From a virus, in IMG/VR virus record IMGVR_UViG_3300045988_126619, positions 64,001-128,000 of that record: a stretch of 64,000 bases of DNA, one strand, 5' to 3'. The translations under genes and the position numbers were made by a program. Positions within the stretch are counted from its first letter, which is position 1. Each line of letters opens with the position of its first letter. Shown here piece by piece: positions 9,187-64,000 of this stretch. The notes beneath the pieces are model-generated. The model had not been told where the DNA came from. It saw nothing but the letters and a program-made list of their open reading frames with translations, and did no database searches.

Positions 9187-9224
9187 GCAAACCATATTAT
9201 ACAACAACATAGAACAGGGTAAAA

Positions 9225-9255
9225 GGGAAGATTGCTAACGCATCTTCTCCTTTTT
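9225..9255 (+). terminator. intrinsic terminator
   Basis: 8-bp stem GGGAAGAT/ATCTT(C)TCC with one bulge, 9-nt loop, TTTTT at 9251-9255. Confidence 0.65.
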
Positions 9256-9313
9256 AACTCATAAAACAAGTTTTATTCGTTATAGTTTGTTTTTTATTAT
9301 CTATACCTACAAC

Positions 9314-9516
9314 TATATACCCCCCCCATATATGAAGTATATCCGCCCATATAAGCTTCTTATACCCCTCCCCTTATAACTTTACTATTTATATTTGCAG
9401 GGTGCTTAGAACAGCTAATAGGGTTATTATTTTGTTATATGTTTACGACTGCAATATACCCCCTCCCTACCTATATATAATTATTGGCATTAATACGTTA
9501 AGTACCCGCCCTACTT
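9314..9516 (+). repeat. cluster of five short AT-stem hairpins with C-rich loops
   Basis: TATATA-C8-ATATAT (9314-9333); TATAT-CCGCCC-ATATA (9338-9353); TTATA-CCCCTCCCC-TTATAA (9360-9379); ATATA-CCCCCTCCCTACC-TATAT (9454-9476); AAGTA-CCCGCCC-TACTT (9500-9516). Confidence 0.6.
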
Positions 9517-9543
9517 GACAACAATTAAAAATAGTATTATAAT
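9515..9543 (+). promoter_or_regulatory. consensus sigma-A promoter firing into ORF-free DNA
   Basis: -35 TTGACA 9515-9520, 17-nt spacer, -10 TATAAT 9538-9543. No ORF of 60 aa or more lies downstream for 1.8 kb. Confidence 0.6.
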
Positions 9544-9757
9544 AGTAATAAAGAAGTAGGGTAGAATAATAGATATTTACTCTATGAAATGGCAATAAGT
9601 TCTTTGAAAAGTAAATAAAAAGGGTGTTTTTGAAAATGGATATATCCGATGATTTACATATGTTTATGAGTGATGTTATGAGAAAAGTGTTACTCGTCAA
9701 AAAATACAAAATGTGTGTAGATTAAGGAGAGGATGGCTTTGTTCACGAATTGAACAC

Positions 9758-9769
9758 AGTAAACGTTTA
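9758..9769. repeat. perfect 12-bp palindrome GTAAACGTTTAC (copy 1)
   Basis: An identical copy sits at 11294-11305. 11/12 copies are at 11237-11248 and 14176-14187. Confidence 0.7.
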
Positions 9770-9928
9770 CAAGTACCCCCTAGTATACGTTTTCATACGA
9801 TATATAACAGAGTATAAGTATACATTATACGTTGTTACCTATGTACTAGGCTTTACCAGTAATAAGGGAAAATATTTTCATAAATTGAACACTCATTAAT
9901 GTTATGTATATATTTGTTACGTACCTAT

Positions 9929-9944
9929 ACACACACACACACAC
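9929..9944. repeat. (AC)8 microsatellite
   Basis: Read directly from the sequence. Confidence 0.9.
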
Positions 9945-9966
9945 CAACATAACAAAATGTTAATAT

Positions 9967-9998
9967 CAAGTACAGTATTAGTAAACATAAAGTTTAAT
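9967..9998 (+). repeat. ~30-nt direct repeat, copy a
   Basis: CAAGTACAGTATTAGTAAACATAAAGTTTA versus CAAGTATAGTATTAGTAAACAAAAGTTTA at 11095-11125. Confidence 0.6.
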
Positions 9999-10192
9999 AT
10001 TAATGAACTATTACCACCATAAAGTTTTGTATTACTATACTTTGTGTTCACTATTACTATACTTGATTTATATATAAGATAAGATTTGAACGTTTGTTAT
10101 TTGTATAGTTGTTCAAGTTTCAATAGTTCAAATCTTATTTTCTCTTATATTTGATATCATGTTATATGGTATTATATACTACATTAACAAGT

Positions 10193-10405
10193 TTGACATA
10201 CAATGATAGAGTTGTTCTAGCAAAAGAGTTATCGAATACCACTTTAAGAGGTTTGACAAGTTATACATTATGTGTTCTAAGTTATATAGTAATGAATACT
10301 ACATAATAAGATTTGACAAACGCTATAACATTTGTTCTAAGATAAGAGTTATTGAATACCATATAAGAAGGCTTGACAAACTATGTTTGATTTGTTCTAA
10401 ATTTT
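10193..10405 (+). repeat. four tandem units in exact 60-bp phase
   Basis: TTGACA at 10193, 10253, 10313, 10373. GTTCTA at 10214, 10274, 10334, 10394. GAATAC at 10234, 10294, 10354. Confidence 0.8.
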
Positions 10406-10406
10406 T

Positions 10407-10650
10407 GGATACTATTTTGAGTGATTTGTCAAGAGTTAATTTATAAGAGGTATTTAATACTGCATTATAAGGTTTGACATAATAATAATTTTATATCTAG
10501 TTTTTTAGAACGACTGATTTTGTTTTGTCAAGTATAATTTTATATATGGTATTGGATACTGTTTAATAAGGTTTGACACATGATGATTTATATGCTCTAA
10601 GAATTTAGATACTATTTTTATAGTTTTGTCAATGGTTAATTTTAGGAGAT
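10407..10650. repeat. ~100-bp-phased composite units with alternating TTGACA orientation
   Basis: TGTCAA at 10427, 10526, 10627. TTGACA at 10474, 10573. (G/A)GATAC at 10407, 10554, 10607. Confidence 0.7.
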
Positions 10651-11094
10651 ATAGTGTATTTAATATGTATACATATGTATGTGTATGAAGTACACCAATC
10701 TATACACGTACAATATAACGACAATTTAGATTTGAACGTGAATTTAAGAACGAAAATAACCTTGTAATTAATCATTTATTTTGTGTTTGAATTTACATTT
10801 TTGTGAGAATTGAAGATAGCTGAAACGTAGTCATATCAATGGTTTGCAGGCTTACAAATATTCCTAATTAATGATAATATATATCATTTACATAAGAATA
10901 TAGTATAGTAAAGGTTTACAACGCATTTATTACGTTATTTTACGACTGTTTTATAACTGGTATTTTAAGAGATATTAAGAACACGAACGTTTAACGTATT
11001 GTGGTGTGAAACATTCAGATAACATATATTAGAACAAGTATTTTGATTTTGTCAAGTTTTTAGCGGAATAGAGTAGTATTGTACAATATATGAA

Positions 11095-11125
11095 CAAGTA
11101 TAGTATTAGTAAACAAAAGTTTATA
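11095..11125 (+). repeat. ~30-nt direct repeat, copy b
   Basis: Matches 9967-9998 with one mismatch and one indel. Confidence 0.6.
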
Positions 11126-11293
11126 AATAGTAAACAATTATCAGAATATTATGAGCGTGTATAATAACGATAATGGAACGATAGAACGGTTTTATTTTTC
11201 AAGGTATTAGTTTACCTGCGATTTTTGGGCGTGAATCTAAACGTTTACATGGGCATTAGAATTGATTGACCAGTCAACATATTGAGTAGTTTT

Positions 11294-11305
11294 GTAAACG
11301 TTTAC
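11294..11305. repeat. perfect 12-bp palindrome GTAAACGTTTAC (copy 2)
   Basis: Identical to 9758-9769. Confidence 0.7.
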
Positions 11306-11382
11306 AGAGTATGAGTGTTCAACAAGTGAACTATTGTTCTGAATAGTGTATAATTAAATAATATGCGAACCTTATCAAGTGC

Positions 11383-11415
11383 AAAAAAATAACTAGCGTA
11401 TAGAACGTTAGTTAT
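11383..11415 (-). terminator. intrinsic terminator of the leftward micro-operon
   Basis: On the - strand: stem ATAACTA/TAGTTAT, 13-nt loop, T7 run. It overlaps the stop of 11412..11621(-). Confidence 0.6.
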
Positions 11416-11621
11416 TGATATATAGATAAAGCTATTAATATTAATATACATAGAGTTGAAAACATTTGTAAGTTGCGTATAATACGTTGAATACTGTTTA
11501 ATGGTTTGAAATCAAGTGACACGTTATAAGAAGTTTTGTTATTATTAGTTATCTTTTTGCTGAATGTTAATGTAGTATTGAATACCATGTTAAAAGTTCT
11601 ATTATAAGTTGTTGTTATCAT
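11412..11621 (-). CDS. 69-aa protein with an Asn/Thr-rich N-terminus and a hydrophobic C-terminus
   Basis: SD AAGAGGTG 7 nt before the ATG. Bracketed by a - strand promoter and terminator. Its DNA overlaps copies of the GAATAC/TTTGA repeat words, so caution is needed. Confidence 0.4.
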   Translation of the reverse strand: MITTTYNRTFNMVFNTTLTFSKKITNNNKTSYNVSLDFKPLNSIQRIIRNLQMFSTLCILILIALSIYQ

Positions 11622-11651
11622 ATCTTTACACCTCTTATTATTTATTTTATG

Positions 11652-11768
11652 CTATATAAATTTATAAGTATAAACTTGTTCCTTAATATCTTTAATACCT
11701 AGAATGAATGATAGTTGTTTTTTGTCTACCACCTTTTGAGTTCCATCTTTAAAAAATATCTTACACAT
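11652..11768 (-). CDS. 38-aa peptide MCKIFFKDGTQKVVDKKQLSFILGIKDIKEQVYTYKFI (not in the track)
   Basis: Carries the AAAGGTGGTAATA SD signature used by + strand early genes, and is preceded by an AAGATAAATGATA box on the - strand. Confidence 0.45.
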   Translation of the reverse strand: MCKIFFKDGTQKVVDKKQLSFILGIKDIKEQVYTYKFI

Positions 11769-11818
11769 AATTTTATTACCACCTTTACATTTTTTGTTAT
11801 CATTTATCTTATGTACTC

Positions 11819-11847
11819 ATTATATAATAAATTTTGGATATAGTCAA
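11819..11847 (-). promoter_or_regulatory. consensus leftward promoter
   Basis: On the - strand: TTGACT (11842-11847), 17-nt spacer, TATAAT (11819-11824). Confidence 0.65.
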
Positions 11848-11935
11848 CATTTTAAGTAATATTTTTATTAATTATTTTATGTTATATATTATATATAATG
11901 TAGAGAAAATTTTAATAATATTTTTACTTAAAATG

Positions 11936-11964
11936 TTGACATAAGATAAACAATAATATATAAT
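11936..11964 (+). promoter_or_regulatory. consensus rightward promoter
   Basis: -35 TTGACA 11936-11941, 17-nt spacer (taagataaacaataata), -10 TATAAT 11959-11964. Confidence 0.75.
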
Positions 11965-12009
11965 AGTAGTTGTAAAGGACAATAGAATAAATTTAAAGAG
12001 GTGCTGTAA

Positions 12010-14538: not shown

Positions 14539-14567
14539 TTGACAAAGCACAAAATAAATGATATGAT
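14539..14567 (+). promoter_or_regulatory. sigma-A-type promoter (second of a tandem pair)
   Basis: -35 TTGACA 14539-14544, 17-nt spacer with AAAATAAATGA, -10 TATGAT 14562-14567. Confidence 0.55.
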
Positions 14568-14758
14568 AATATCAAGGAAAACAGTTCTTTGAAAAATAAA
14601 TATATAGATATTAGATTTACTTTGAAAAAGTTTATAACTTTAAAGAGTGCATTACAAGAGTGAATTGCTTATCTTAATTATTTATTTAATTTAATATATA
14701 GTAATGTTGTATATTAAATTAAGTAAATAAAATATTAAATATAAGAGGTTGAAGTAGT

Positions 14759-37247: not shown

Positions 37248-37490
37248 ATGAAAAAATATGAATGTGTTAAAGCATTTTTAGTTCCATTATGTGATGATGA
37301 TGGTTTCATTATAGAGAATGAAGACAAATATATAGAAGAAGGTTCTATATGGAGTACACCAAAAGATGAAAATTATAGATTGATAGGAGCAGAAGTTAGA
37401 CTTGAAAAAAGTGATTGTGAACGGTTAGAATGGTTAGAAATAACTCAAGAAGATTTAGAAGACAAATTTAGATTGATAGAAGGTGTGTAA
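37248..37490 (+). CDS. hypothetical protein
   Basis: SD AAGGGGGA upstream. Confidence 0.55.
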   Translation: MKKYECVKAFLVPLCDDDGFIIENEDKYIEEGSIWSTPKDENYRLIGAEVRLEKSDCERLEWLEITQEDLEDKFRLIEGV

Positions 37491-37491
37491 A

Positions 37492-38925
37492 ATGATAGAT
37501 AAAGAATTAAATAAAAATATGGAAGTATTAAATATGTTGAGAAAAAGGATTATTATTTTGCCAGAAGTAAGGCTTATATTAGATAAACTTCACATAAATA
37601 ATCATAAGGCTTATATTGTGGGAGGTTATGTTAGAGATTCATTGTTAAAGAATCGTATGCCACATGATTGTGATATATGCACGTCTGCTACACCACAAGA
37701 AATTATGGATATATTTAAAAATTATAAAATAATTCCTACAGGTTTACAACATGGGACAGTAACTATTTGTATGAAATGGGGCGATTATGAAGTAACTACA
37801 TTTAGAAAAGATGGGGAATATTTAGATGGTAGACACCCACAAACAATTGATTTTGTTAATGATTTAAAAGAAGATTTGAGCAGAAGGGATTTTACGATTA
37901 ATGCGTTAGCTTATAATGAAGAAGAAGGATTAATTGATTATTTTGGAGGAAAGGAAGACCTTGAGAATAAAATCATAAGATGTGTAGGAGATGCTGAAAA
38001 AAGATTTAAAGAAGATGGATTGAGAATATTAAGAGCATACAGATTCTCTGCACAATTAGGATTTACTATAGAATATAATACAAGTAGTATATTAGCATAT
38101 AAAGGTGTAAAAACAAATATAGATAACGTATCAAGAGAAAGAATAAGAGAAGAATTAAACAAAATTATATTATCTGATAATTCAAGAGAAGTATTGCTTA
38201 ATATGGTTGATGATGGAATATGTAAAAGTATATTTGGGGATTTTACATTTGAAGATATGATGTTTTTTAATCAGAATAATCCTTATCACAATAGAACATT
38301 ACTCAATCATACACTAACTGCCATGACTATTGCTCCACCAATTTTAGAAGTTAGATTGGCATTATTATTTCATGATATAGGTAAATTACAAACACAAGCA
38401 ACTGATGATAAAGGCATTTCTCACTATTATAATCATTCAAAAGTATCAGCAGAATTAGCTTTAAAGTATTTAAAAGGATTAAAATATGATAATAAAACAA
38501 TAGATATGGTTGTTACATTGATTGCAAACCATGATTTTACATTTGATAATTATGATTATATAATTAAGAAACAATTGAAGAAGCTTCTTAATAAACATGG
38601 GGAAGAAATTGTTAAGAATTTAATAATAATTAGAAAATGTGATATATTAGCACAATCAGAAAAGTATTATTATGACCGATTAGAAAAAATTTATAAAGTT
38701 GAACGTTTACTAAATGATGTTTTAGAAGACCAAGAATGTTTTCAAATTAAAGATTTGGCTATAAACGGAAATGATTTAATTACAATAGGTTATGAGCAAG
38801 GTGTAGAACTTGGGAAAACTTTAAAATATATTGTAGACCTTGTTATAGAAGAACATTTGAATAATGACAAAGAAGAATTATTAGAATATGCAAAATTTTT
38901 ATTAAAAACACTTGACACAAAATAA
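37492..38925 (+). CDS. cca: CCA-adding tRNA nucleotidyltransferase with HD domain
   Basis: GGYVRDSLL, DCDICT, RRDFTINA, ERIREEL, then LLFHDIGK (HD). ATG 37492 follows SD GAAGGTG. Confidence 0.85.
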   Translation: MIDKELNKNMEVLNMLRKRIIILPEVRLILDKLHINNHKAYIVGGYVRDSLLKNRMPHDCDICTSATPQEIMDIFKNYKIIPTGLQHGTVTICMKWGDYEVTTFRKDGEYLDGRHPQTIDFVNDLKEDLSRRDFTINALAYNEEEGLIDYFGGKEDLENKIIRCVGDAEKRFKEDGLRILRAYRFSAQLGFTIEYNTSSILAYKGVKTNIDNVSRERIREELNKIILSDNSREVLLNMVDDGICKSIFGDFTFEDMMFFNQNNPYHNRTLLNHTLTAMTIAPPILEVRLALLFHDIGKLQTQATDDKGISHYYNHSKVSAELALKYLKGLKYDNKTIDMVVTLIANHDFTFDNYDYIIKKQLKKLLNKHGEEIVKNLIIIRKCDILAQSEKYYYDRLEKIYKVERLLNDVLEDQECFQIKDLAINGNDLITIGYEQGVELGKTLKYIVDLVIEEHLNNDKEELLEYAKFLLKTLDTK

Positions 38926-41727: not shown

Positions 41728-41982
41728 ATGAGTTTTGAATGGAAATGTAAATGTGAAAAAACAATAATTATACCTTTTGCGGATATTCCAACACTAATGA
41801 GTGGTTTTGCTTATTGCGTATGTGAAGACTGTTATAAGGAGTTATTGAAAGAAGAAAGAAGTTATTATGCAACAGAAGAAGAATTTAAAGAGTGGACAAG
41901 GGAATTTAAGCAAAATAATGGATTACCTTACTTTATAACTCCAGATGGAGCGACATATGCTTGTGAAGTAAAGAAAGATTAA
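41728..41982 (+). CDS. small Cys-rich protein
   Basis: SD AGAGGTG upstream. CKCEK..CVCEDC. Confidence 0.5.
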   Translation: MSFEWKCKCEKTIIIPFADIPTLMSGFAYCVCEDCYKELLKEERSYYATEEEFKEWTREFKQNNGLPYFITPDGATYACEVKKD

Positions 41983-42019
41983 TTTAGCATGAAAAAGAAA
42001 ATATTAGATGTTTATTAGA

Positions 42020-42052
42020 ATAAGTCAAGCAAATAGCTTGGCTTATTTTTTA
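42020..42052 (+). terminator. intrinsic terminator
   Basis: 11-bp stem ATAAGTCAAGC/GCTTGGCTTAT (one G-U), 5-nt loop, T6. Confidence 0.8.
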
Positions 42053-42161
42053 TTTCTAGGCATCAGAGCCTTTGTGTAAGAGGTTTTAATTGTGCTAAGG
42101 ATAAATTAGTCTATGATTAATAATAACGTCTTATAATTGACGTATGGAGCAAATAAAACTA

Positions 42162-42190
42162 TTGACACAAAATAAATGATATGATAAAAT
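42162..42190 (+). promoter_or_regulatory. sigma-A-type promoter driving an ORF-free transcript
   Basis: -35 TTGACA 42162-42167, 17-nt spacer with box, -10 TAAAAT 42185-42190. Confidence 0.6.
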
Positions 42191-42196
42191 AAATCT

Positions 42197-42620
42197 TGTA
42201 AAAGTTAATTAAGAAGATATGAGAACAAACTATCTTTAAAGACAATCCGTGGAAGCTGACACCACGTATAAACAAGGCTGAACTGTAGGCAACGCAAGAA
42301 AAATACAGTAGGACAGATACATTACTCTATTTATGTTAATCTGCCCTTTAAGTGGGTACATATGTCCACTATATAAATTATATGGGTGTTTCTAGGGAAC
42401 TGGCAGAAATGCGGGATATAAGTCACATACAAACCTTTGTCGGGTAACAGTTGGCAATTGTAGACTTATATACAAATAGAGATAGCATGAGCGATACAAT
42501 TCAGTATACTCAACTATGTTTTTCTTTTTACTCTCAATTTTGAGGGTAAAACATAAACACTTCGCAACGTTTCCACAGTTCCTCAACTATACTTTTCTTA
42601 ATTCAAAAGTCAAGTGTTTT
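42197..42620 (+). ncRNA. candidate ~420-nt structured non-coding RNA of unknown class
   Basis: It has its own promoter and no SD-led ORF. Local G+C is ~38% over 42241-42480 (counted by hand) against a ~28% background. Many stems, e.g. 42248-52/42262-66, 42311-22/42333-45, 42351-55/42366-70, 42417-24/42463-70. ACTTTT/AAAAGT hairpin plus T5 at the 3' end. Confidence 0.5.
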
Positions 42621-42643
42621 TACATAAAATAAATAATAAAGTG

Positions 42644-42672
42644 TTGACAATATTTAAAATGTATTATATAAT
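42644..42672 (+). promoter_or_regulatory. consensus promoter
   Basis: -35 TTGACA 42644-42649, 17-nt spacer, -10 TATAAT 42667-42672. Confidence 0.75.
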
Positions 42673-42714
42673 AATAGTATAGTAAATAAGATAAATGATA
42701 AGGAGAGAGGTAAC

Positions 42715-43338
42715 ATGACAAAATTAGAAAAAGATATTATAAAAGAAAAACTTAAAGGATTAGAAGAAGGAACAAAGATATATGTAAAAGATGGTGATGG
42801 AATAGTACAAGAAGCAAAGTTTGAGAAAATGAATAGAACAAGATTTGTAGCCAAGTATAAGAATGGAACTTATTCATTCCCACTAAGCTTTTTTATAGGA
42901 ACTTGTGATGATAGTATAAAGGCTAAAGAAATCATAAATGAACAAAAGAATAAATATAAGAAATTTAACTTTATTAAAAAGAATCTTAATATTAAGGGAC
43001 TTAATACAACAGATTGTGCTGTTAGAGGTGTGGCAGAATTATTAAATATATCATGGGAAGATGCTATGATTAGATTAGCACAAACGTCTTGTATTACTGG
43101 TGAAATGCCTAACGATATAAGAACAACTGATATGTTATTAGAAAAAGAAGGGTTCAAACATATTAAAATTAAAAAGATGAAAGTTATTGATTTTGTAGAG
43201 AATATAGCAGAGAAGGATAAAAAATATGCAATTCATGCTAGTGGACACTTTACAGTAGTTAAAGGATATGACTTAATAGATTCATGGGATTGTAGAAATA
43301 ATATGATAAAGTCAGTATTAGAAATGGAGGATAAATAA
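42715..43338 (+). CDS. hypothetical protein; C-terminal half may be a papain-fold Cys-His-Asp peptidase
   Basis: NTTDCAVRGVAELLNISWEDA .. IHASGHFTVV .. IDSWD. The assignment is weak. Confidence 0.3.
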   Translation: MTKLEKDIIKEKLKGLEEGTKIYVKDGDGIVQEAKFEKMNRTRFVAKYKNGTYSFPLSFFIGTCDDSIKAKEIINEQKNKYKKFNFIKKNLNIKGLNTTDCAVRGVAELLNISWEDAMIRLAQTSCITGEMPNDIRTTDMLLEKEGFKHIKIKKMKVIDFVENIAEKDKKYAIHASGHFTVVKGYDLIDSWDCRNNMIKSVLEMEDK

Positions 43339-43827: not shown

Positions 43828-44433
43828 ATGGCAAAATATTATGCGATTAAATCAATTGATGGAGAATTAGTAAATAAGATTTATACAAGTTGGGATGAAT
43901 GTAAAGAAAAGGTTAGTGGACATAACTCAATTTATAAATCATTTAAAACACAAGAACAGGCAGAAGAATATTTAGGAAACGCACAAGAAGAAATTAAAGA
44001 GCATGAAATAAATGATAATAATGTAATATATTATGTTGATGGTTCTTATATGAATGATGTAATAGGTTGGGGTTGGGTAAAAGTAAAGAATGGTAAACAG
44101 ATAGGTTCTGATTGTGGAGGTATTAAACCAACACAAGAAAATAGTCGTAATATAACAGGAGAATTACAAGCAACTATGTTTGCAGTAAAGAACGCAATAT
44201 TAACTGGTGTGAAAGATATTTACATTGGACATGATTATCAAGGAATAAGTTGTTATGTAAGAAAAGAATGGAAACCAAAAAGTAAAGAATCAGTAGCTTA
44301 TACTAAATGGATGTTAGATGCTATAAAAAAATATAATTTAAATATTCAATTTTTTAAGATAAAAGGGCATACTGGTAATGAATGGAATGAAGTAGTAGAT
44401 AAAGTTGCTAAATTAGGGACAGAGGTGATTTAA
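43828..44433 (+). CDS. rnhA: ribonuclease HI with N-terminal hybrid-binding (Cauli_VI-like) domain
   Basis: N-terminus YYAIKS..IYTSWDECKEKVSGHNSIYKSFKTQEQAEEYL. Catalytic YVDGS, TGELQA, GHDYQG, NEVVDKVAK. Confidence 0.8.
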   Translation: MAKYYAIKSIDGELVNKIYTSWDECKEKVSGHNSIYKSFKTQEQAEEYLGNAQEEIKEHEINDNNVIYYVDGSYMNDVIGWGWVKVKNGKQIGSDCGGIKPTQENSRNITGELQATMFAVKNAILTGVKDIYIGHDYQGISCYVRKEWKPKSKESVAYTKWMLDAIKKYNLNIQFFKIKGHTGNEWNEVVDKVAKLGTEVI

Positions 44434-47354: not shown

Positions 47355-49538
47355 ATGAGAACATTAGTTTTACTTAGAGGAAGTGCAGGATGTGGCAAAT
47401 CAACATTTATTAAGGAGCATAAGTTAGAGGACTATACGTTGTCCTCTGACAGTTTTAGATTATTATATAGTTCACCTATATTAATGAATGATGGAACACA
47501 ATCAATTAGTGGAAAACATGAGAAAAAGACATGGGAAACATTATTTAATATCCTAGAATATAGAATGGAACAAGGGTTATTTACAGTAATAGATGCTACT
47601 AATAGTAAGGTTTCTGAAATTAACAAATATAAAAAACTTGCTGAATTTTATAGATATAATATTATTGTAGTAGATTTTACAGATTTGCCAAGAGAAGAAT
47701 GTAAGATTAGAAATGCAAATAGAGAACCTAGTTATAAAATAGTTCCAAATGTTGTAATAGATAAATTCTATGATAGATTTGATAAAAAGGAAAAGTTAAG
47801 TGGAGTAACAGTTATTAAACCACATGAATTTGAACAAGCTATAAGGATTACACCTATTAATGTATCTAACTATAATGATATTCAAATCATAGGAGATATT
47901 CATGGTTGTTATGATGCACTAATGACAATGTTAGAAGGTGGACAATTAAAAGAAGATAGATTATATATATTCACAGGAGATTTTTGTGATAGAGGTATCC
48001 AAAATGCAGAAGTGTTAGAATATTTATTCACTATTATGAACAATGATAATGTAATTTTATTAGAAGGAAACCATGAAAGAGCCTTATGGAGATATGCAAA
48101 TGATTTATATAGTCAACGAAGACAATTTGAAAAATATACAAAAGAAGAATTAATTAATAAAAATGTTTCTAAATCAAAAATTAGACATTTATATAGAAGA
48201 TTAAGGCAAATGGCTTTATTAAAGTTTGATGAAAAGACATTATTTATTTGTCATGGTGGTATTACTAATTTATCACAAGATTTACATTTGATTTCAGCAG
48301 AACAATTAATTTATGGTGTAGGTAATTATGAAGAAGTTGAAATTATTGATAATATATTTGAATTAAACACAAGTTCTACAACTTATCAGATACATGGACA
48401 TAGAAATGTTAATAGTAAACCTATTAATATAACACCAAGATGTTTCTGTTTAGAAGATAGAGTAGAATTTGGTGGGAATTTAAGAAGTGTAATATTTACA
48501 CACTCTATAATTAAAACTGTATCAGTAAAGAATGATACATATAAAGATTCAGAATACACAGAGGATAAAGATATTGTTATAGAGCCAAACATATTAGATA
48601 GATTAAGAAGTAGTGAATTAATTAGAGAAGTTAAGTTTGGTAATATTTCATCATTCAATTTTACAAGAAAAGCTTTTAATAATAAAGAATGGAATAATGA
48701 AACAATCAAAGCGAGAGGTTTATATGTAAATACTAATACAAAAGATATAGTTATAAGAAGTTATGATAAATTCTTTAATGTTAATGAAAGAGAAGAAACA
48801 CAATTACAGAACCTTTGTAAATCACTTTCTTATCCTGCTACAGCGTATGTTAAGTACAATGGATATCTTGGTCTAGTTGGTTATGATAACGAATCTGACA
48901 AGCTGTTAGTGGCTTCTAAATCACGATTGGATGGAGATTATGCAGACTGGATAAGAGAGATAATAAATACATGGGAAGATGATAAAATTCAATTCATGCA
49001 AGATTATGTTAAAAAGAACAAATGTACGCTAGTATTTGAAGTTATTGTTCCAGAACATGATACTCATATGATTAAGTATGATAAGTCTGAATTAGTGCTT
49101 TTATCCATTGTCAGAAATAATATTGAATTTGAACAGCTACCATATGAAGAAGTAATCGAACTTGGACACCGTTTAAATTTAAATTTTAAAGAGAAAGCAA
49201 TTGTTTTAAATAATAAGGAAGAGTTTTTGTCATGGTATAGAGAAGTTACACAAGAAGACTATATGTATAATGGTGAAGATATTGAAGGCTTTGTAATAGA
49301 GGATTCTAAAGGATTTATGACAAAAATTAAGTGTAGTTATTATACATTTTGGAAACATATGCGAGCATTAGTGGGAAGATATAAAAAACAAGGATATTAT
49401 ATGGATACTTCCAATTTAAATGATAGAGCATTATTATTCTTAGAATTTTTAAAGACATTACCAAAAGAACAATTGGAATATGATATCATTACATTAAGAG
49501 ATATGTTTTACAATTATGTTATTAATAAATTTTTTTAA
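47355..49538 (+). CDS. trifunctional polynucleotide kinase / metallophosphatase / RNA-ligase-like repair enzyme (bacterial Pnkp architecture)
   Basis: P-loop GSAGCGKST; GDIHGC, GDFCDRG, GNHE, HGH; ligase motifs KYNGYLG (I), EGFVIE (IV), TKIK (V). 727 aa. Confidence 0.75.
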   Translation: MRTLVLLRGSAGCGKSTFIKEHKLEDYTLSSDSFRLLYSSPILMNDGTQSISGKHEKKTWETLFNILEYRMEQGLFTVIDATNSKVSEINKYKKLAEFYRYNIIVVDFTDLPREECKIRNANREPSYKIVPNVVIDKFYDRFDKKEKLSGVTVIKPHEFEQAIRITPINVSNYNDIQIIGDIHGCYDALMTMLEGGQLKEDRLYIFTGDFCDRGIQNAEVLEYLFTIMNNDNVILLEGNHERALWRYANDLYSQRRQFEKYTKEELINKNVSKSKIRHLYRRLRQMALLKFDEKTLFICHGGITNLSQDLHLISAEQLIYGVGNYEEVEIIDNIFELNTSSTTYQIHGHRNVNSKPINITPRCFCLEDRVEFGGNLRSVIFTHSIIKTVSVKNDTYKDSEYTEDKDIVIEPNILDRLRSSELIREVKFGNISSFNFTRKAFNNKEWNNETIKARGLYVNTNTKDIVIRSYDKFFNVNEREETQLQNLCKSLSYPATAYVKYNGYLGLVGYDNESDKLLVASKSRLDGDYADWIREIINTWEDDKIQFMQDYVKKNKCTLVFEVIVPEHDTHMIKYDKSELVLLSIVRNNIEFEQLPYEEVIELGHRLNLNFKEKAIVLNNKEEFLSWYREVTQEDYMYNGEDIEGFVIEDSKGFMTKIKCSYYTFWKHMRALVGRYKKQGYYMDTSNLNDRALLFLEFLKTLPKEQLEYDIITLRDMFYNYVINKFF

Positions 49539-54214: not shown

Positions 54215-56833
54215 ATGAAAATTAATAAAGAAGGTTTAAGTAACCAAGAAGTAGAACAAAGTAGAGAAAAATATGGAGCGAATAGACTTCCCGAAAAAGT
54301 ATATCCTACAATATGGGAAAGAATAACAAATGTTTTTAAAGAAGATGGAATAATGACAATGTTATTTGTTTTAGCAATATTGGAAGGAATTGAAGCACTA
54401 GTATGTAGAGAGATACCTTGGGAATGTATAGGAATCATGACTACAGTTAGTGTAGTAACATTTTTTACTATTAATTCAGATTTGAAACAAGAAAAATCAT
54501 TTAAAGATTTGAAAGCATCTATACAAGAGCCTACAGTTACTGTAATAAGAGAAGGAAGAAAACAGATAATTAAACAATCAGACTTAGTAGTTGGTGATAT
54601 TTGTTTACTTAATAATGGAGAAAAAGCTTATGCTGATGGATTGATAATTGAACAAACCGATTTTAAAATTTCAAATGCAGAACTTAATGGTGAATCAGAT
54701 GAAGTAGAAGTTGATACATTTAATTATGTGGAAAATTCAGAAGTTGAATTTACAGATGATGTTTCAAAACAAGAAGGATTTATTAATAGTGGAGCATTAA
54801 TTGTTAATGGTAAAGCTACTATGGGAGTTGTAAGAGTTGGAGAAAACACAGAAAGTGGTAAAGCTTTAGTAAATGTTACTGAAATGAAAACGCCTTTGCT
54901 TGAAAAACTTGATACTTTAACAGAACAAATCACAAGATATGGTGCAGTTGGTGCAACATTAATGTTCGCTATCAATTTTGGAGTGATTGTTTTATTAAAA
55001 GGTGGATTATCATACTTCACAAGTACAGCAGTTCTTAGTATAGGATTAGATATAGTTGCTTGTTTAATGGTTGCATTATCAATATTTAGTGCATCTGCCC
55101 CAGAAGGTCTTCCATTTGTTATTAACTTAGTTCTTTCAGCAAATGTTAACAAGATGAAAAAACACAACGTTTTATTAAAAAATGTTAAAAAAGGTGAAAC
55201 AAGTGGTTCTTTATCAATCTTATTTAGTGACAAAACAGGAACAATGACAAAGAATATAATGTCAATAGTTGAATTTACAGATGGAACAGGAAAAACACTT
55301 AATCGTGGCGAAATTGAAAATTCAAAATACAAAGAATTAATAGATAGAAGTATTGTAATGAGTTCAGATTCATATTATGACGAGAATGGAGATTTAATTG
55401 GTGGTAATGGTACTGATAGAGCATTTAGTAAGTTTGTTGGAGCAGATTTATTTAAACAATATTCAAATAGTACAGTAATTAAATCACAACCATTCAATTC
55501 TAAGAATAAGTATAACGCAGTTCAATTAGATGGATACACTATATATAAAGGTGCAGGAGAAATATTAGTAAACAATTCTAAAAACTTAATAAATACTGAT
55601 TGTTGGGTAAGAGGAATTGAAGAAGAAGATAGAGAAAATCTACAATCTACAATGGATAGAATGATGAATAAGGCTGAAAGAGTTTTAGCTATCGCAATTT
55701 CTAAACAACCATTAGTTGACAATGAACTTCCAAGCGACTTAACATTATTAGCGGTATTTGGTATTAGAGATGAAATAAGAGAAAGTACACCAACAGCTAT
55801 TGAAAATTTAAATAATGCAGGTGTTCAAGTTGTAATGGTAACAGGAGATAATATTAAAACTGCTGATGCTATTGCAAAAGAAATCGGATTATTAAAAGAT
55901 GGAGATTTAAGTTTTACAAATGATATATTAATGGATATGACCGATGAAGAAATCGCTTCAATATTACCTAAATTAAAAGTAGTTGGTAGAGCGAAACCAG
56001 ATACTAAACGTAGATTAAATCATATCGCTCAAAATAACGGTTATGTTACAGGAATGTGCGGAGATGGAGTTAATGATGCTCCTGCCTTAATGCAAGCTGA
56101 TATTGGATTTGCTATGGGTTCTGGAACAGATGTTGCAAAAGATGCAGGTGACGTAGTTATCTTAGATAATAACTTAGCATCAATTGAATATGGTGTTAAG
56201 AGTGGTAGACAAATATTTAAGAATATTCAAAAGTTCTTAAAGTATCAATTAGCAATTAATGTTGGTATTGTTATAACTCCTATTTTAGCTTCATTATGTG
56301 GTGTAACTAAATCATTAGCAGTAACAAGTATTCTATGGATTAATGCAATAATGGATACATTAGCATCACTTGCATTTAGTGGTGAACCTTGTGAAGATAG
56401 TGTGATGAAAGAAAAACCTATCTCAAGAACAGCTAACATAATTAATAAAGACATGATGATTCAAATAGCAACAACTGGTTTATACTTTATAGGAACTGGA
56501 TTATTTATGCTAACAAGTGATGTAATGGGTAATTTATTTGGTGAAAAACAAACAACAGCTTATTTCTCATTATTTGTAATGATAGCGATATTCAATGGTT
56601 TTAATGTAAGAACAGCATCAATTAATTGTTTAAAAGACATTAAAAAGAATCCAAGATTTATTAAGATTATGGCTTTAATTACAGTATTACAAGTGTTATT
56701 AGTAAGTTTTGGTGGTAAAATATTTGATGTTATGCCAATGAACCTTATGGAATGGTTAATTGTAACAGGTATTGCAGTATTAATTATCCCAATAGATTTA
56801 ATTAGAAAAATGATTATGAATAAAACAAAATAA
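54215..56833 (+). CDS. P2-type cation-transporting ATPase, Ca2+-pump-like
   Basis: NGESDEV (TGES variant), APEGLP in TM4, DKTGTMT, KGAGE, MVTGDN, GDGVNDAPAL. 872 aa with ~10 TM segments. Confidence 0.8.
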   Translation: MKINKEGLSNQEVEQSREKYGANRLPEKVYPTIWERITNVFKEDGIMTMLFVLAILEGIEALVCREIPWECIGIMTTVSVVTFFTINSDLKQEKSFKDLKASIQEPTVTVIREGRKQIIKQSDLVVGDICLLNNGEKAYADGLIIEQTDFKISNAELNGESDEVEVDTFNYVENSEVEFTDDVSKQEGFINSGALIVNGKATMGVVRVGENTESGKALVNVTEMKTPLLEKLDTLTEQITRYGAVGATLMFAINFGVIVLLKGGLSYFTSTAVLSIGLDIVACLMVALSIFSASAPEGLPFVINLVLSANVNKMKKHNVLLKNVKKGETSGSLSILFSDKTGTMTKNIMSIVEFTDGTGKTLNRGEIENSKYKELIDRSIVMSSDSYYDENGDLIGGNGTDRAFSKFVGADLFKQYSNSTVIKSQPFNSKNKYNAVQLDGYTIYKGAGEILVNNSKNLINTDCWVRGIEEEDRENLQSTMDRMMNKAERVLAIAISKQPLVDNELPSDLTLLAVFGIRDEIRESTPTAIENLNNAGVQVVMVTGDNIKTADAIAKEIGLLKDGDLSFTNDILMDMTDEEIASILPKLKVVGRAKPDTKRRLNHIAQNNGYVTGMCGDGVNDAPALMQADIGFAMGSGTDVAKDAGDVVILDNNLASIEYGVKSGRQIFKNIQKFLKYQLAINVGIVITPILASLCGVTKSLAVTSILWINAIMDTLASLAFSGEPCEDSVMKEKPISRTANIINKDMMIQIATTGLYFIGTGLFMLTSDVMGNLFGEKQTTAYFSLFVMIAIFNGFNVRTASINCLKDIKKNPRFIKIMALITVLQVLLVSFGGKIFDVMPMNLMEWLIVTGIAVLIIPIDLIRKMIMNKTK

Positions 56834-58426: not shown

Positions 58427-59251
58427 ATGGTAAAAGTAAATGGAGAAGAACACAATTATTATTTATTCCCTAATAATGAATTAAAGGTATCACCTATTAG
58501 ATATGGTAATTATGTTGAAATTAAAGATGGCGATGATATAGAAGTAGAATTAATATATGAAAATTCAATAGACCTTGTTCACCTTATATTTGTAAAGAAA
58601 TTTTTAGATGAAGCCTATCCACATAGTTGTGTAGATTTAGTTATGAAATATATTCCATACTCAAGAATGGACAGGGAAACACCTTTTCAAATGTTTACTT
58701 GTAAATATTTATGTCAATTAATAAATGATTTATGTTTTAGTTCTGTAACAGTATTAGACCCTCATTCAAATGTATGTGTGGGAGCATTAGAACGTGTTAA
58801 GCAAATAGATTTATCATATTATGTTAAACAAGTATTAGACTACGAAAGAGTGAAAGAAGGAACTTATATAGATGCTATATTCCTTCCAGACGTAGGTGCA
58901 TATAAAAAGTATACAGAAGTATTGGATAATGTAAAGTTACCTAAATTTTGGGGGAATAAACATCGTGACTTAAACAATGGAGCAATAACTGATTATGATA
59001 TAATTGGAGATATTGATGTTAATGGTAAAAATATACTTATAGTTGATGATATATGCGTTAAGGGATTTACCACATTATTTGCCTCAAAGAAATTAAAAGA
59101 ACTAGGAGCAAATAAAGTCATTTTCTATTGTTCTCATTGTGAAGATGCTATTCATAGTGGACAATTATTAAAAACAGATTATGTAGATAGAATATATACA
59201 ACTGATAGCATGAAATTTGATGAACATAATAAAATAATTAAATTATATTAG
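58427..59251 (+). CDS. ribose-phosphate pyrophosphokinase (Prs) homolog; candidate ADPR-pyrophosphate synthetase (Adps-like)
   Basis: YIPYSRMDR (YxRQDR-like), VLDPHS (DLH-like), ILIVDDICVKGFT (PRPP loop). 274 aa, shorter than housekeeping Prs. Confidence 0.6.
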   Translation: MVKVNGEEHNYYLFPNNELKVSPIRYGNYVEIKDGDDIEVELIYENSIDLVHLIFVKKFLDEAYPHSCVDLVMKYIPYSRMDRETPFQMFTCKYLCQLINDLCFSSVTVLDPHSNVCVGALERVKQIDLSYYVKQVLDYERVKEGTYIDAIFLPDVGAYKKYTEVLDNVKLPKFWGNKHRDLNNGAITDYDIIGDIDVNGKNILIVDDICVKGFTTLFASKKLKELGANKVIFYCSHCEDAIHSGQLLKTDYVDRIYTTDSMKFDEHNKIIKLY

Positions 59252-59275
59252 GAGAAAGTATTATATCAAAATATG

Positions 59276-59304
59276 TTGACATAAAATAAATGATAGTATA
59301 TAAT
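59276..59304 (+). promoter_or_regulatory. consensus promoter with box
   Basis: -35 TTGACA 59276-59281, 17-nt spacer, -10 TATAAT 59299-59304. The leader has a hairpin GTAGAGAGCAG..CTGCTCCTAC. Confidence 0.8.
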
Positions 59305-59370
59305 AAATAATGTAGAGAGCAGTTAGTAAATCTGCTCCTACAATATAAATAAATGAAAGAGAGTGATTAT

Positions 59371-60843
59371 ATGAAAACAAACCCAATGTTATTGATTGAT
59401 TTTTATAAGGCTTGTCATAGTGATATGTTACCAAAAGGAATAACTAAATCAGTCAGTTATTTTACACCTAGAATGAAAAGAGTTGAAAGATGGGACAATG
59501 TAGTTATGTTCGGTCTACAAGGATTTATTAAAACTTATTTAATTGATTATTTTAACGAAAATTTCTTTAATCAAACAACAGAAAAGGCAGTATTTGAATA
59601 TGAAAGAGTTCTTAAATATTCTTTAGGGGAAGATTCTTTTAGTAGTGAAAAAGTAAGAAAACTTCATAAATTAGGTTATTTACCAATTGAAATTTTAGCA
59701 ATTAAAGAAGGAACAAAAGTACCTATAAAGATACCTATGTTTGCAATAACAAATACTCATGATGATTTTGCATGGCTACCACAAGCCTTAGAATCACTTA
59801 TATCTGCTGAAATGTGGCATCCTATGATATCAGCTACAGTTGGAGCAACTTATAGAGATATAGTAAATAAATATTATGATATTTCATGTGATGATGATAT
59901 TCCAAGAGCAAAAGCATTAGGAGATTTTAGCTTTAGAGGACAAGAATGTTTACAATCAGCAATTAAGAGTTCAGCAGGTTGGTCACTATCATTCTTAAAT
60001 TCAGCTACAGTTCCTGCTATACCATATTTAGAAGATAATTATAATTGTAATTGCATAACAGAACCAGTTTTATTTGGGGCAGTTTCTACAGAACATTCTG
60101 TGATGTGTTCTAATTATTCTGTAGATGGGGATGAAGAAACATTAATCAGAAGATTATTAACTGAATTATATCCAAATGCTTCATTTAGTGCTGTTTTAGA
60201 TTCTTATGATTATTGGAGAATTGTTAAAGAAGTTCTTCCTAAATTAAAAGAAGAAATACTTAACCACAATGGATGTTTCTTAATAAGGGGAGATAGTGGG
60301 GATTGTGTAGAAGTTGTTACACAAACTGTATTTGAGTTATGGAAGACATTTGGAGGAACTGTTAATAGTAAAGGCTATAAAGTATTAGACCCACACGTAA
60401 AAGCTATTTATGGTGATTCTATAACAGTTCAAAGATGTGAAGAAATATATAAGATACTTATAGAAAATGGATTTGCTTGTTCAAATGTAGCACTTGGTGT
60501 TGGCTCATTCTCAATGCAAGCAATTGAAGAAGATGGAATACTTAAACCATTTACTAGAGATACTTATGGAATGGCTATTAAAGCTACTTACATGGAAATA
60601 AATGGTGAATCATATCCAATATTTAAGAATCCAAAGGATGGAGGATTTAAGAAATCGCAAAAAGGCTGTTGTAGTGTATTCTTTGATGAAGATGGGGAAA
60701 TGGTTTATGCAGATGGATTAACTTGGGAAGAAGCTTGTGGTGATGAAGAAAACTTATTACAACCAGTATTTAAAGATGGTCAGTTAGTTAGGGAACAATC
60801 ATTACAAGAAATAAGAAATATATTACATGAAGGAGGATTTTAA
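59371..60843 (+). CDS. nicotinamide phosphoribosyltransferase (NAMPT/NadV) family; candidate Namat-like enzyme
   Basis: NPMLLIDFYKACH N-terminus typical of NAMPT. 490 aa. ATG 59371 follows SD AGAGAGTG. Confidence 0.7.
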   Translation: MKTNPMLLIDFYKACHSDMLPKGITKSVSYFTPRMKRVERWDNVVMFGLQGFIKTYLIDYFNENFFNQTTEKAVFEYERVLKYSLGEDSFSSEKVRKLHKLGYLPIEILAIKEGTKVPIKIPMFAITNTHDDFAWLPQALESLISAEMWHPMISATVGATYRDIVNKYYDISCDDDIPRAKALGDFSFRGQECLQSAIKSSAGWSLSFLNSATVPAIPYLEDNYNCNCITEPVLFGAVSTEHSVMCSNYSVDGDEETLIRRLLTELYPNASFSAVLDSYDYWRIVKEVLPKLKEEILNHNGCFLIRGDSGDCVEVVTQTVFELWKTFGGTVNSKGYKVLDPHVKAIYGDSITVQRCEEIYKILIENGFACSNVALGVGSFSMQAIEEDGILKPFTRDTYGMAIKATYMEINGESYPIFKNPKDGGFKKSQKGCCSVFFDEDGEMVYADGLTWEEACGDEENLLQPVFKDGQLVREQSLQEIRNILHEGGF

Positions 60844-62948: not shown

Positions 62949-63034
62949 TCTCTTGTACACACAAAATAAATGATAGCAAATAATTAATAACAAAAAGATA
63001 AAAATATTTAAAGAGAAAAAGGAGAATTAACATT

Positions 63035-64000
63035 ATGGCAAATAACATTTTTAAGGAAGCAACATTTAACTTTATAGGACACATCAACTTTGGGAAAGAA
63101 CCAGTATCAATCAAAAATGCAAGAAAAGATGGTACAGGTAATCTTTATAGAAAGAAACTTGGAGTAGGAATAAAACATAGCACTTCTTGTCCATTCTTAT
63201 CAATGGAAGTATTACAAGATGGTATGAATCCAGAAAAATTTAAAGTTCTTGGATTAGATAATAAACTTGTTGAAGTTCCATATGGAATAACAACTAATCC
63301 AGATGTAATGGCTAAAATAGCTGACTACACTAAGATAACTATTGACTTAGAAACTGATTTTGAAAAGAAGAAAGAATATGTTTCATTAATTTACAAAGTT
63401 AGAAGTCATGAGTTTAAATTAGGTGAATTAGAAAAGAAGAAAGAAAGCGAAGGTCTTACTACAGAAGAAGAAACAGCAATTGAAGAACATAAAGCTAAGA
63501 TTGAAGAATATAACGCTGAAATAGCTGAAAAAGCTACTAATAGACACACATTTATTATGAAAGATGCTATTGATTTTATTAATGCTAATCTTCCAGAAAT
63601 GAAGAAACATAAAGTTAGAGTTACTGGTAATGCAGTTAGTAACTATTACAATGATGTTAATAAACTACAATATGTTCCAAAGACTATTGAGTATGTTCCA
63701 GACGATACACCAACTTGCTTAAAAGTTGAAGCAACAGTATTCTTTGAAAAGAAAGCCATGATTGATGATGAAAAGAATAAAAAAGTTATGGTTAACGGTT
63801 ATCTTCCAGAAACAAGAAAGAAAGTAACTAAACTTTATCCAACAATGTTTGTTATAGATTACAATAAGTTAGACTTATCACAAGAATCTCACCAAACTGC
63901 TTTAGACTTCATGAAATCAACATTTGAAGGTAAAGATAAGAAATCAGTTTACAGAGTATTAGTTGATATTGATGTTATAGATGGAGCAGAAGTTAAAGAG
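63035..64000 (+). CDS. 5' part of a gene running out of the window (not in the track)
   Basis: SD AAAGGAGAA 8 nt before ATG 63035. The frame is open for all 322 codons to the window edge. MANNIFKEATFNFIGHINFGKEP... Confidence 0.6.
   Translation, partial: MANNIFKEATFNFIGHINFGKEPVSIKNARKDGTGNLYRKKLGVGIKHSTSCPFLSMEVLQDGMNPEKFKVLGLDNKLVEVPYGITTNPDVMAKIADYTKITIDLETDFEKKKEYVSLIYKVRSHEFKLGELEKKKESEGLTTEEETAIEEHKAKIEEYNAEIAEKATNRHTFIMKDAIDFINANLPEMKKHKVRVTGNAVSNYYNDVNKLQYVPKTIEYVPDDTPTCLKVEATVFFEKKAMIDDEKNKKVMVNGYLPETRKKVTKLYPTMFVIDYNKLDLSQESHQTALDFMKSTFEGKDKKSVYRVLVDIDVIDGAEVKE

Follow-up and report, generated by a model that had tools for sequence, protein, structure and literature searches.

What does a large phage keep in a gap of several hundred nucleotides (nt) that holds no gene? 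The question is raised by a stretch of 64,000 nt from the IMG/VR virus record IMGVR_UViG_3300045988_126619 (positions 64,001 to 128,000 of that record; the whole stretch is hereafter called the window), in which 732 nt (41983-42714) separate an open reading frame (ORF) of 87 amino acids (aa) from one of 207 aa. A first-pass annotation had described positions 42162-42620 as a candidate large structured RNA bounded by a promoter and a terminator. The proposal of a structured RNA is supported by the stability of the fold, by a local peak of conservation, and by compensatory and strand-specific G-U changes among relatives. The proposed bounding stands as far as the promoter and an upstream terminator are concerned, and fails at the 3' end, where no terminator was found. 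Beyond what the annotation had noticed, the same site is occupied in sister phages by another structured RNA, unrelated to the first. Taken together, the comparison shows a non-coding, plus-strand locus for a predicted structured RNA, driven by a putative promoter of its own, under strong constraint and existing in two non-homologous forms, which we call form A (that of the window) and form B.

The non-coding character of the gap is clear from several directions. It contains no ORF in any of the six frames, with many stops throughout, and since every frame holds several TAA codons, reassignment of TGA or TAG would open no frame. Stop-free translations of the region gave no Pfam match, substitutions among form A sequences lack codon periodicity, and relatives differ by 1-nt indels; the marks of a protein-coding gene or pseudogene (an open frame, codon periodicity, protein homology) are thus all missing, and nothing pointed to the decayed protein gene that the annotation had named as an alternative outcome. 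A small ORF resembling a type I toxin (42516-42632, MFFFLLSIL...) was considered and rejected, as it has no Shine-Dalgarno sequence, its frame is broken by a 1-nt indel in one relative (L014), and it is absent from form B. The annotated G+C content of ~38% at 42241-42480 is accurate (38.3%), while the background was put too high, the whole window having 25.9% rather than ~28%; 150-nt windows within this segment are among the most G+C-rich of the 64 kb.

Relatives were recovered via the flanking proteins as 27 contigs (L001-L017 and L031-L039), of which 24 reach the site and three (L015, L016 and L036) are cut before or inside it. In every relative that reaches the site, a non-coding gap of ~0.7 kb lies directly upstream of the homologue of the 207-aa protein. 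In steps of 100 nt, the nucleotide identity to the diverged relative L014 is 55-78% over the flanking genes and 86-96% over 42210-42609; the 207-aa protein of L014 is 52% identical, and the proteins of the diverged phages are 52-65% identical. Identity to L011 reaches 93-98% in the RNA core, and the body of form A is 91-99% identical in five other form A sequences drawn from three phage lineages. The non-coding segment is the conservation peak of its neighbourhood.

The minimum free energy (MFE) of 42198-42606 is -99.7 kcal/mol, with a z-score of -4.3 against dinucleotide shuffles (z -3.2 for 42197-42625). All the local helices listed by the annotation were found where it had placed them, and most belong to the consensus fold. 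In the six distinct form A sequences, variation tends to spare positions predicted to be paired (18 variable columns paired vs 48 unpaired; odds ratio 0.375, p 7e-4). One compensatory change converts CGUGG/CCACG to CGUAG/CUACG (42251/42263), a C-G pair is swapped for G-C at 42278/42289, and single-sided changes turn G-C into G-U in the 42310-47 helix and U-A into U-G in the 42416-71 helix. Wobble changes in forms A and B are all valid solely on the plus strand. A hand-built model of form A comprises 101 pairs, with 97.2% of cells paired and three two-sided changes, a value reached by 15 of 500 shuffles. Because two-sided changes are few, one of the three being alignment-dependent, and most helices are invariant, we regard covariation in form A as suggestive rather than strong. 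The long-range complementarity GGAACUG/CAGUUCC, also proposed by the annotation, does exist as a possible pairing; it gained no comparative support, L014 breaking one of its pairs without compensation.

Form B gives the firmer structural signal. Sister phages have flanks 94-100% identical to the window and a 207-aa protein that is 96-100% identical (exactly so in L002-L010), and in them 42210-42587 is swapped for an unrelated sequence of 418 nt. Neither blastn nor nhmmer found similarity between the two forms beyond the leader GUAAAAGUUAAU, the element UAAGAAGAUA and the tail UAUACUUUUCUUAAUUCAAAAGUCAAGUG; between the leader and UAAGAAGAUA, form B carries an inserted hairpin of 31 nt. Like form A it has no ORF, its frames being shifted by 1-nt indels, and its fold has a z-score of -5.2. 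A hand-built model based on eight distinct form B sequences has 119 pairs, with 98.9% of cells paired, and five pairs in four helices show two-sided changes, vs 0 in slid controls. These are GGUAC/GUAUC to GGUCU/AGACC, UGAG/CUCA to UGAA/UUCA, UGGG/CCCA to UGGC/GUCA and to UGGU/GCCA, and, in a pseudoknot between a hairpin loop and downstream sequence, CCCUU/AAGGG to CCCUC/GAGGG. Eleven substitutions fall inside the 50-nt pseudoknotted module, while the remainder of form B is ~98% identical. The compensatory changes expected of a conserved structured RNA are present in relatives of both forms, exceeding the slid controls in form B and suggestive in form A.

At contigs reaching the site, form A was found in 13 besides the window and form B in 11, and no third body type occurs among these 24 relatives. 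Form A is present in three diverged lineages and form B in two, and the window, itself of form A, resembles L002, which is B-type, far more than it does L011 or L014, which are A-type. The distribution of the forms is thus at odds with the relatedness of the flanks, which implies exchange via recombination through the conserved sequence on either side. An identical (100%) 207-aa protein is found downstream of either form, with an identical P2 and ribosome-binding-site region, which argues against a body tuned to the downstream gene.

Pairing between the shared ends closes both molecules. In separate MFE folds of A and B, the shared 5' UAAGAAGAU is joined to the shared 3' ACUUUUCUUA, with 42207-42221 pairing to the distal tail in each; UAAGAAGAUA (42210-19) forms the 5' strand of this closing helix, and the tail is common with form B from 42588 onward. 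In L017 the helix is longer, as two neighbouring substitutions in the tail make pairs out of mismatches. The consensus fold instead pairs 42211-21 with 42515-25, in the proximal copy of an 18-nt direct repeat (42509-26 vs 42582-99), to which CUAUCUCUU is the analogous element of form B; the apparent covariation at this proximal closing helix depends on how the U-run is aligned. Near the 3' end, a hairpin with a UUCGCAA loop is common to A and B, its loop reading UUCACAA in L039.

The limits of the transcription unit are clear on one side only (Table 1). The strong terminator that had been annotated at 42020-42052 was found just there, give or take the exact ends, and both annotated promoters, here P1 and P2, were recovered. 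Transcription from P1 is predicted to start near G42198. Its hexamers are retained in L011 (-10 TACAAT) and L014 (-10 TAATAT), where the spacer differs, and this preservation of the hexamers in diverged relatives while the spacer changes supports P1 being real. After P2 come the ribosome-binding site AAGGAGAGAGG and an ATG at 42715. The annotated 3' boundary, an ACUUUU/AAAAGU hairpin followed by U5, fared less well: the terminator scan did not call this weak element, the whole 3' region folds at just -6 kcal/mol, and L011 and L014 have no U-run. Of the two features of an independent terminator-bounded gene for a small or other non-coding RNA, the locus thus has its own promoter and lacks its own intrinsic terminator. 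The motif AAGUCAAGUG in this region could be a marker of the 3' end or a place where the transcript is processed. Read on the minus strand, the same motif gives a -35 box (TTGACT), and a promoter-like sequence, TTGACT-16-TATAGT (42613..42586), points from there into the RNA from its 3' end; its hexamers are kept in form A relatives with the 16-nt spacer variable, and in form B the -10 is TATACG. An antisense transcript from 42613..42586 is possible on this pattern.

P1 is one of ~30 or more copies of the same type on the plus strand of the window, several of them before protein genes. The recurrent extended type is AAAACTATTGACA...TGATAAAAT, i.e. AAAACTATTGACA-N17-T(G)ATAAAAT, with plus-strand sites at, for example, 14442, 23162, 37180, 40925, 49537, 52342, 56876, 59276 and 62684, and suggests a single temporal class of phage promoters.

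No known RNA family accounts for either form, in agreement with the annotation, which could match the segment to none. A cmscan of the whole window with all 4227 families of Rfam 15, the search that the annotation had proposed with ROOL, GOLLD, raiA and OLE in mind, gave nothing at the gathering score, and at E<=10 the segment 41950-42750 returned only sub-threshold microRNA and small-RNA matches, the best (E 0.09) lying on the upstream terminator hairpin. Form B likewise gave only sub-threshold matches in Rfam 15. The ROOL model matched neither the window at gathering score nor 41950-42750 or form B at E<=10, and the GOLLD model matched none of the three. ARAGORN found no tRNA and no transfer-messenger RNA (tmRNA) in the 64-kb window, and covariance models and ARAGORN between them gave no match to tmRNA, tRNA, RNase P, 6S, group I/II introns, riboswitches or ribozymes; nor did any riboswitch, T-box or antitermination family match. 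Within the RNA region there is no tandem repeat and no iteron, form A is complementary to other parts of the window only in chance-level matches of 13-14 nt, and neither blastn nor nhmmer found a second copy in the window. The type I-B-like CRISPR repeat known from relatives is absent from the window within 3 mismatches, and the RNA region contains no repeat unit that would make it a CRISPR array or a solitary-repeat RNA anti-CRISPR.

Searches for the RNAs elsewhere were similarly negative. BLASTN in distant mode found no match to form A in GenBank phages or PLSDB plasmids and none to form B in GenBank phages, a search of IMG/VR with both flanking proteins gave no relatives, and exact 30-mer scans found neither form A in IMG/VR and GTDB genomes nor form B in GTDB genomes. 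A pattern combining the promoter and leader had 13 matches in IMG/VR and JGI metagenomes, all judged to be chance on inspection. The cassette is also absent from more distant Clostridium phages reached via RNase H homologues (L040, L041 and L044). On present data, both RNA families are confined to this phage clade. What is new is one or two families of large phage non-coding RNAs and the two-form locus, with a prior listing in bulk catalogues of candidate RNAs being possible.

Of the known kinds, the orphan large phage RNAs ROOL and GOLLD come closest; these large ornate RNAs of phages and prophages form RNA-only nanocages (PMC12286853). Common to them and the RNAs described here are an origin in Firmicute phages, a length of several hundred nt, dense structure with likely pseudoknots, high conservation also at unpaired positions, and the lack of a known protein partner; moreover, ROOL and GOLLD are themselves two unrelated RNAs in similar phage genomic niches. 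The differences are as plain: neither Rfam model matched, the RNAs here measure ~410-470 nt vs ~580 and ~800 nt (GOLLD is often longer than 800 nt, with a conserved 3' half), the typical setting of tRNA genes or tRNA islands is missing from a 64-kb window without tRNA genes, and here two unrelated RNAs alternate at exactly the same locus, with shared promoter and ends, in near-identical genomes. The pRNA of the phi29 family is another phage-encoded structured RNA. It is made from an early promoter, and among its relatives position and fold are preserved despite almost complete divergence of sequence, with loop-loop pairs that co-vary, much as the loop-to-downstream pairing of form B co-varies. 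However, pRNA is 120-174 nt long, specific to small phi29-like podoviruses and located at the genome end, whereas forms A and B fold differently from each other, and there is no sign that the RNA is connected with packaging.

The immunity and copy-control RNAs of P1/P7 (c4), P4 (CI RNA) and ColE1 (RNA I/II) show that allelic RNA variants on conserved flanks can set specificity types, and in some relatives an antirepressor gene adjoins the cassette. These RNAs are 70-110 nt long (RNA II ~550 nt) and act via defined complementary target sites; here, there is no target complementarity in the window beyond the chance level, and there are no origin features. The omega RNAs of TnpB/IscB are structured non-coding RNAs of a few hundred nt on mobile elements, and tnpB lies nearby in several relatives. 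Unlike omega RNAs, the locus is neither adjacent to nor overlapping a tnpB 3' end; the window has no tnpB in the vicinity of 42 kb, and in relatives tnpB ends ~1.4 kb upstream, has a 3' region of its own unlike A or B, and co-occurs with both forms. A link between tnpB and form B was considered and dropped, as L005, a contig with form A, has its start within that very 3' region of tnpB.

By a modest margin of belief, we favour the view that a large Clostridium phage here encodes a stable, highly structured non-coding RNA with an interchangeable body and a role in trans that we infer. The sigma-A-type phage promoter P1 would start transcription, and the transcript would fold into a multi-helix body of ~370 nt (form A), enclosed by pairing of UAAGAAGAUA with either the pyrimidine-rich UAUACUUUUCUUA (42588-42600) or the internal repeat at 42515-25. 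The shared ends, that is promoter, leader and closing strands, may be seen as a common chassis in which sister phages house the unrelated body of form B. The RNA would most likely act in trans, as a folded scaffold or decoy binding a host or phage macromolecule after infection, and the two forms could represent alternative specificities that recombination through conserved flanks keeps among the phages of the population.

Several points weigh against this interpretation. The transcript itself is a prediction from sequence, and the action in trans as scaffold or decoy an inference; no partner protein was found, and the neighbouring genes gave no functional lead. With a 3' hairpin that is weak and not conserved, what looks like a separate RNA may be no more than the 5' portion of a longer mRNA. 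The z-score of local 200-nt folds does not set this gap apart from other gaps, the full-length fold alone doing so, and tail changes in L014 and L039 weaken the closing helix. There are just 6 (A) and 8 (B) distinct sequences from few lineages, hence few compensatory events, several of them from a single split; most helices never vary, and the structural models were built from the same sequences that were used to test them. High identity could, moreover, result partly from recent cassette exchange rather than constraint.

The main rival follows from the lack of a real terminator and the constant position of the cassette directly upstream of P2 and the 207-aa gene. The segment could be a cis-acting structured 5' leader, P1 transcripts running through P2 into the 207-aa/142-aa/RNase H operon and the leader controlling stability, processing, translation or elongation; we give this explanation a real, though distinctly minority, share of our belief. 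It would fit the missing U-run in L011 and L014, the adjacency of cassette, P2 and gene in all related contigs, the insertion of accessory genes solely upstream of the cassette promoter and never between cassette and gene, and the two alternative 3' partners of the 5' strand (repeat D2), which could form a switch. Yet a perfect-consensus P2 sits between RNA and gene, so that most mRNA would bypass control by the leader; the same downstream protein and P2 region occur with two wholly unrelated bodies; ~370 nt conserved at 86-98%, unpaired positions included, far exceeds what known leaders need; and no riboswitch, T-box or antitermination family matched. Two interchangeable forms on identical flanks would also suit a specificity determinant, and an improbable reading gives the RNA a part in replication or incompatibility, as a pre-primer or in the control of copy number, like ColE1 RNA II/RNA I or the P1 and P4 immunity RNAs, with A and B as incompatibility or immunity types of a phage persisting as a plasmid. 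The RNase H gene 1.2 kb downstream, the possible antisense promoter with its kept hexamers and variable spacer in form A relatives, and the antirepressor gene just upstream in L032 would agree with it. The locus, however, adjoins no iterons, AT-rich unwinding element or initiator gene, and a better origin candidate lies at 9187-12009 (60/120-nt tandem repeats and a stretch of 13-15% G+C); the antisense -10 is poor in form B, structural signals are all on the plus strand, and known immunity RNAs are far shorter, at 70-110 nt.

More doubtful again is membership of one of the known classes of large RNA (ROOL, GOLLD, raiA, OLE, RNase P, tmRNA, a group I/II intron or a TnpB/IscB guide RNA) in a form too diverged for covariance models to detect. 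The RNA does resemble ROOL and GOLLD in being encoded by a phage, in its length of several hundred nt, in its rich structure and in its probable pseudoknots, and a tnpB gene lies 1.4 kb upstream in relatives, but the family searches were negative (cmscan and ARAGORN for A, cmscan for B), nothing in it resembles the 3' region of the tnpB element, which also occurs with form A, and the RNA, not being inside a gene, is not an intron. Scarcely credible, finally, is a non-functional remnant, whether a protein gene in decay or mosaic filler that recombination left behind. It is true that the site is a hotspot, where an antirepressor, a choline-binding-like gene, a TnpB element and a mini-CRISPR array come and go among relatives; but this is the most conserved segment of its neighbourhood, in phages with proteins just 52-65% identical, none of the relatives whose contigs extend to the site lacks it, both forms show compensatory changes and low fold z-scores, and the stops in six frames, missing periodicity, 1-nt indels and lack of protein-family matches speak against a former gene.

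Table 1. Features of the RNA locus and of selected neighbouring genes in the window.
Feature	Position	Strand	Remarks
Intrinsic terminator	42017-42049	+	14-bp stem then T-run; -16.5 kcal/mol, z -5.0; closes upstream operon; 5' limit of non-coding gap
P1, promoter of the RNA	42162-42190	+	-35 TTGACA, 17-nt spacer, TG-extended -10 TAAAAT; 11/12 matches in pattern scan
Shared 5' end	42198-42219	+	Leader GUAAAAGUUAAU plus UAAGAAGAUA; in both forms
Form-A-specific body	42220-42587	+	~370 nt; replaced by form B in sister phages
Body helix	42248-52/42262-66	+	CGUGG/CCACG
Body helix	42282-87/42304-09	+	With candidate 2-bp pseudoknot 42277-78/42289-90
Body helix	42310-22/42333-47	+	
Body helix	42351-56/42365-70	+	
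Body helix	42416-24/42463-71	+	Encloses two small hairpins
Body helices	42488-42512; 42526-42551	+	
Proximal copy of 18-nt direct repeat D2	42509-42526	+	CUCAACUAUGUUUUUCUU; alternative partner of 5' strand UAAGAAGAUAUG
Body hairpin	42556-42572	+	UUCGCAA loop
Distal repeat copy running into shared 3' tail	42582-42606	+	CUCAAC|UAUACUUUUCUUAAUUCAA; 3' strand of closing helix
Motif AAGUCAAGUG then U5	42607-42621	+	Motif invariant in all A and B sequences
P2, promoter of downstream 207-aa gene	42644-42672	+	Perfect consensus, 12/12; 3' limit of locus
CCA-adding enzyme	37483-38925	+	
RNase H1-type enzyme with hybrid-binding domain	43828-44433	+	1.2 kb downstream of RNA
Kinase-phosphatase-RNA-ligase fusion	47355-49538	+	Best relatives in SPbeta-like and Staphylococcus phages
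P-type cation ATPase; NAMPT-like protein; phosphoribosyltransferase-domain protein	54215-56833 and 58427-60843		ATPase full-length, 872 aa; NAMPT-like protein 496 aa

The related contigs are 146-162 kb long and come from human-gut and other metagenomes, and a neighbour protein is 95% identical to one annotated in a Clostridium butyricum assembly (on a 155-kb contig), which together point to a large phage (~159 kb) or phage-like extrachromosomal element linked to C. butyricum. The genes of the window are all on the plus strand and most are small. Besides those in Table 1, recognisable products include a metallophosphatase, a DUF3846 protein, helicases and tyrosine recombinases. Genes for RNA repair and processing (CCA-adding enzyme, RNase H1, RNA-ligase fusion) lie within 5 kb either side of the RNA, and the phosphoribosyltransferase-domain and NAMPT-like proteins make up an NAD-salvage pair in a phage. 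The 207-aa protein was considered as a potential partner of the RNA; its AlphaFold model (predicted local distance difference test, pLDDT, 78) has an N-terminal barrel and gave only weak Tudor/SH3-like matches, with no sequence match in the PDB.

In relatives, an accessory-gene hotspot lies just upstream of the RNA promoter (L032:246-1969; L011:2725-3306; L037:1551-2144), its inserts being an antirepressor gene (P22_AR_N, 290 aa) and/or a choline-binding-like gene of 193-197 aa; the antirepressor insertion of L032/L033 is flanked on either side by a duplicated copy of the promoter region. Sister phages also carry a mini-CRISPR array between a TnpB element (IS605 OrfB, 449 aa) and the DUF3846 gene (L002:1266-1491, L005:247-404), with type I-B-like repeats, GTTTAATATTAA[C/T]ATGAGATGTATTTAAAT, and up to 3 spacers, and solitary repeats occur at L037:357-386 and L007:1-30. 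The spacers of relatives match neither the window nor any related locus, cassettes included. In L040 (Clostridium sp. M14, 173-kb contig), the syntenic gap has a Cys-rich ORF with an in-frame TAA (L040:3569-4135), and L040:984-2066 and L041:323-1408 (C. botulinum) encode an anti-Pycsar Apyc1-like metallo-beta-lactamase nearby.

Elsewhere in the window, 9187-12009 is a stretch of 2.8 kb without a plus-strand ORF of 60 aa or more, with perfect promoters at 9515 and 11936, tandem repeats of 60/120 nt at 10161-10400, each with TTGACA...TTCTAA, and a stretch of 13-15% G+C at 11750-11950 (fold z -5.8). It may be a replication origin, a regulatory region or a site of further non-coding RNAs. Other intergenic 200-nt windows that fold well are 14542-14741 (z -6.4) and 63249-63448 (z -4.4), and the gap 62949-64000 also has no plus-strand ORF of 60 aa or more.

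Large conserved structured RNAs without known function are rare, and OLE, ROOL, GOLLD and raiA have opened new biology, including RNA-only nanocages; the present locus contributes two new candidate RNA families. It also amounts to a natural experiment, with two unrelated folded RNAs in one chassis of promoter and ends in otherwise near-identical phages, such that allele swaps, competition assays and pull-downs can be designed directly. The neighbourhood of RNA-repair and counter-defence genes, together with the mini-CRISPR arrays of relatives, makes a role in phage-host conflict testable. A bolder proposal, which we put forward tentatively and think rather unlikely as a whole, is an RNA cassette system, in which a constant chassis carries one of at least two non-homologous bodies of ~370-410 nt as a polymorphism of co-circulating Clostridium phages, the bodies being alternative specificity modules in phage-host or phage-phage conflict, or self-assembling architectures like ROOL and GOLLD. 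Decoys for RNA-targeting defences and RNA-based exclusion or immunity would be examples. If this is true, the hypervariable yet structure-preserving pseudoknot of form B would be a fast-evolving recognition surface.

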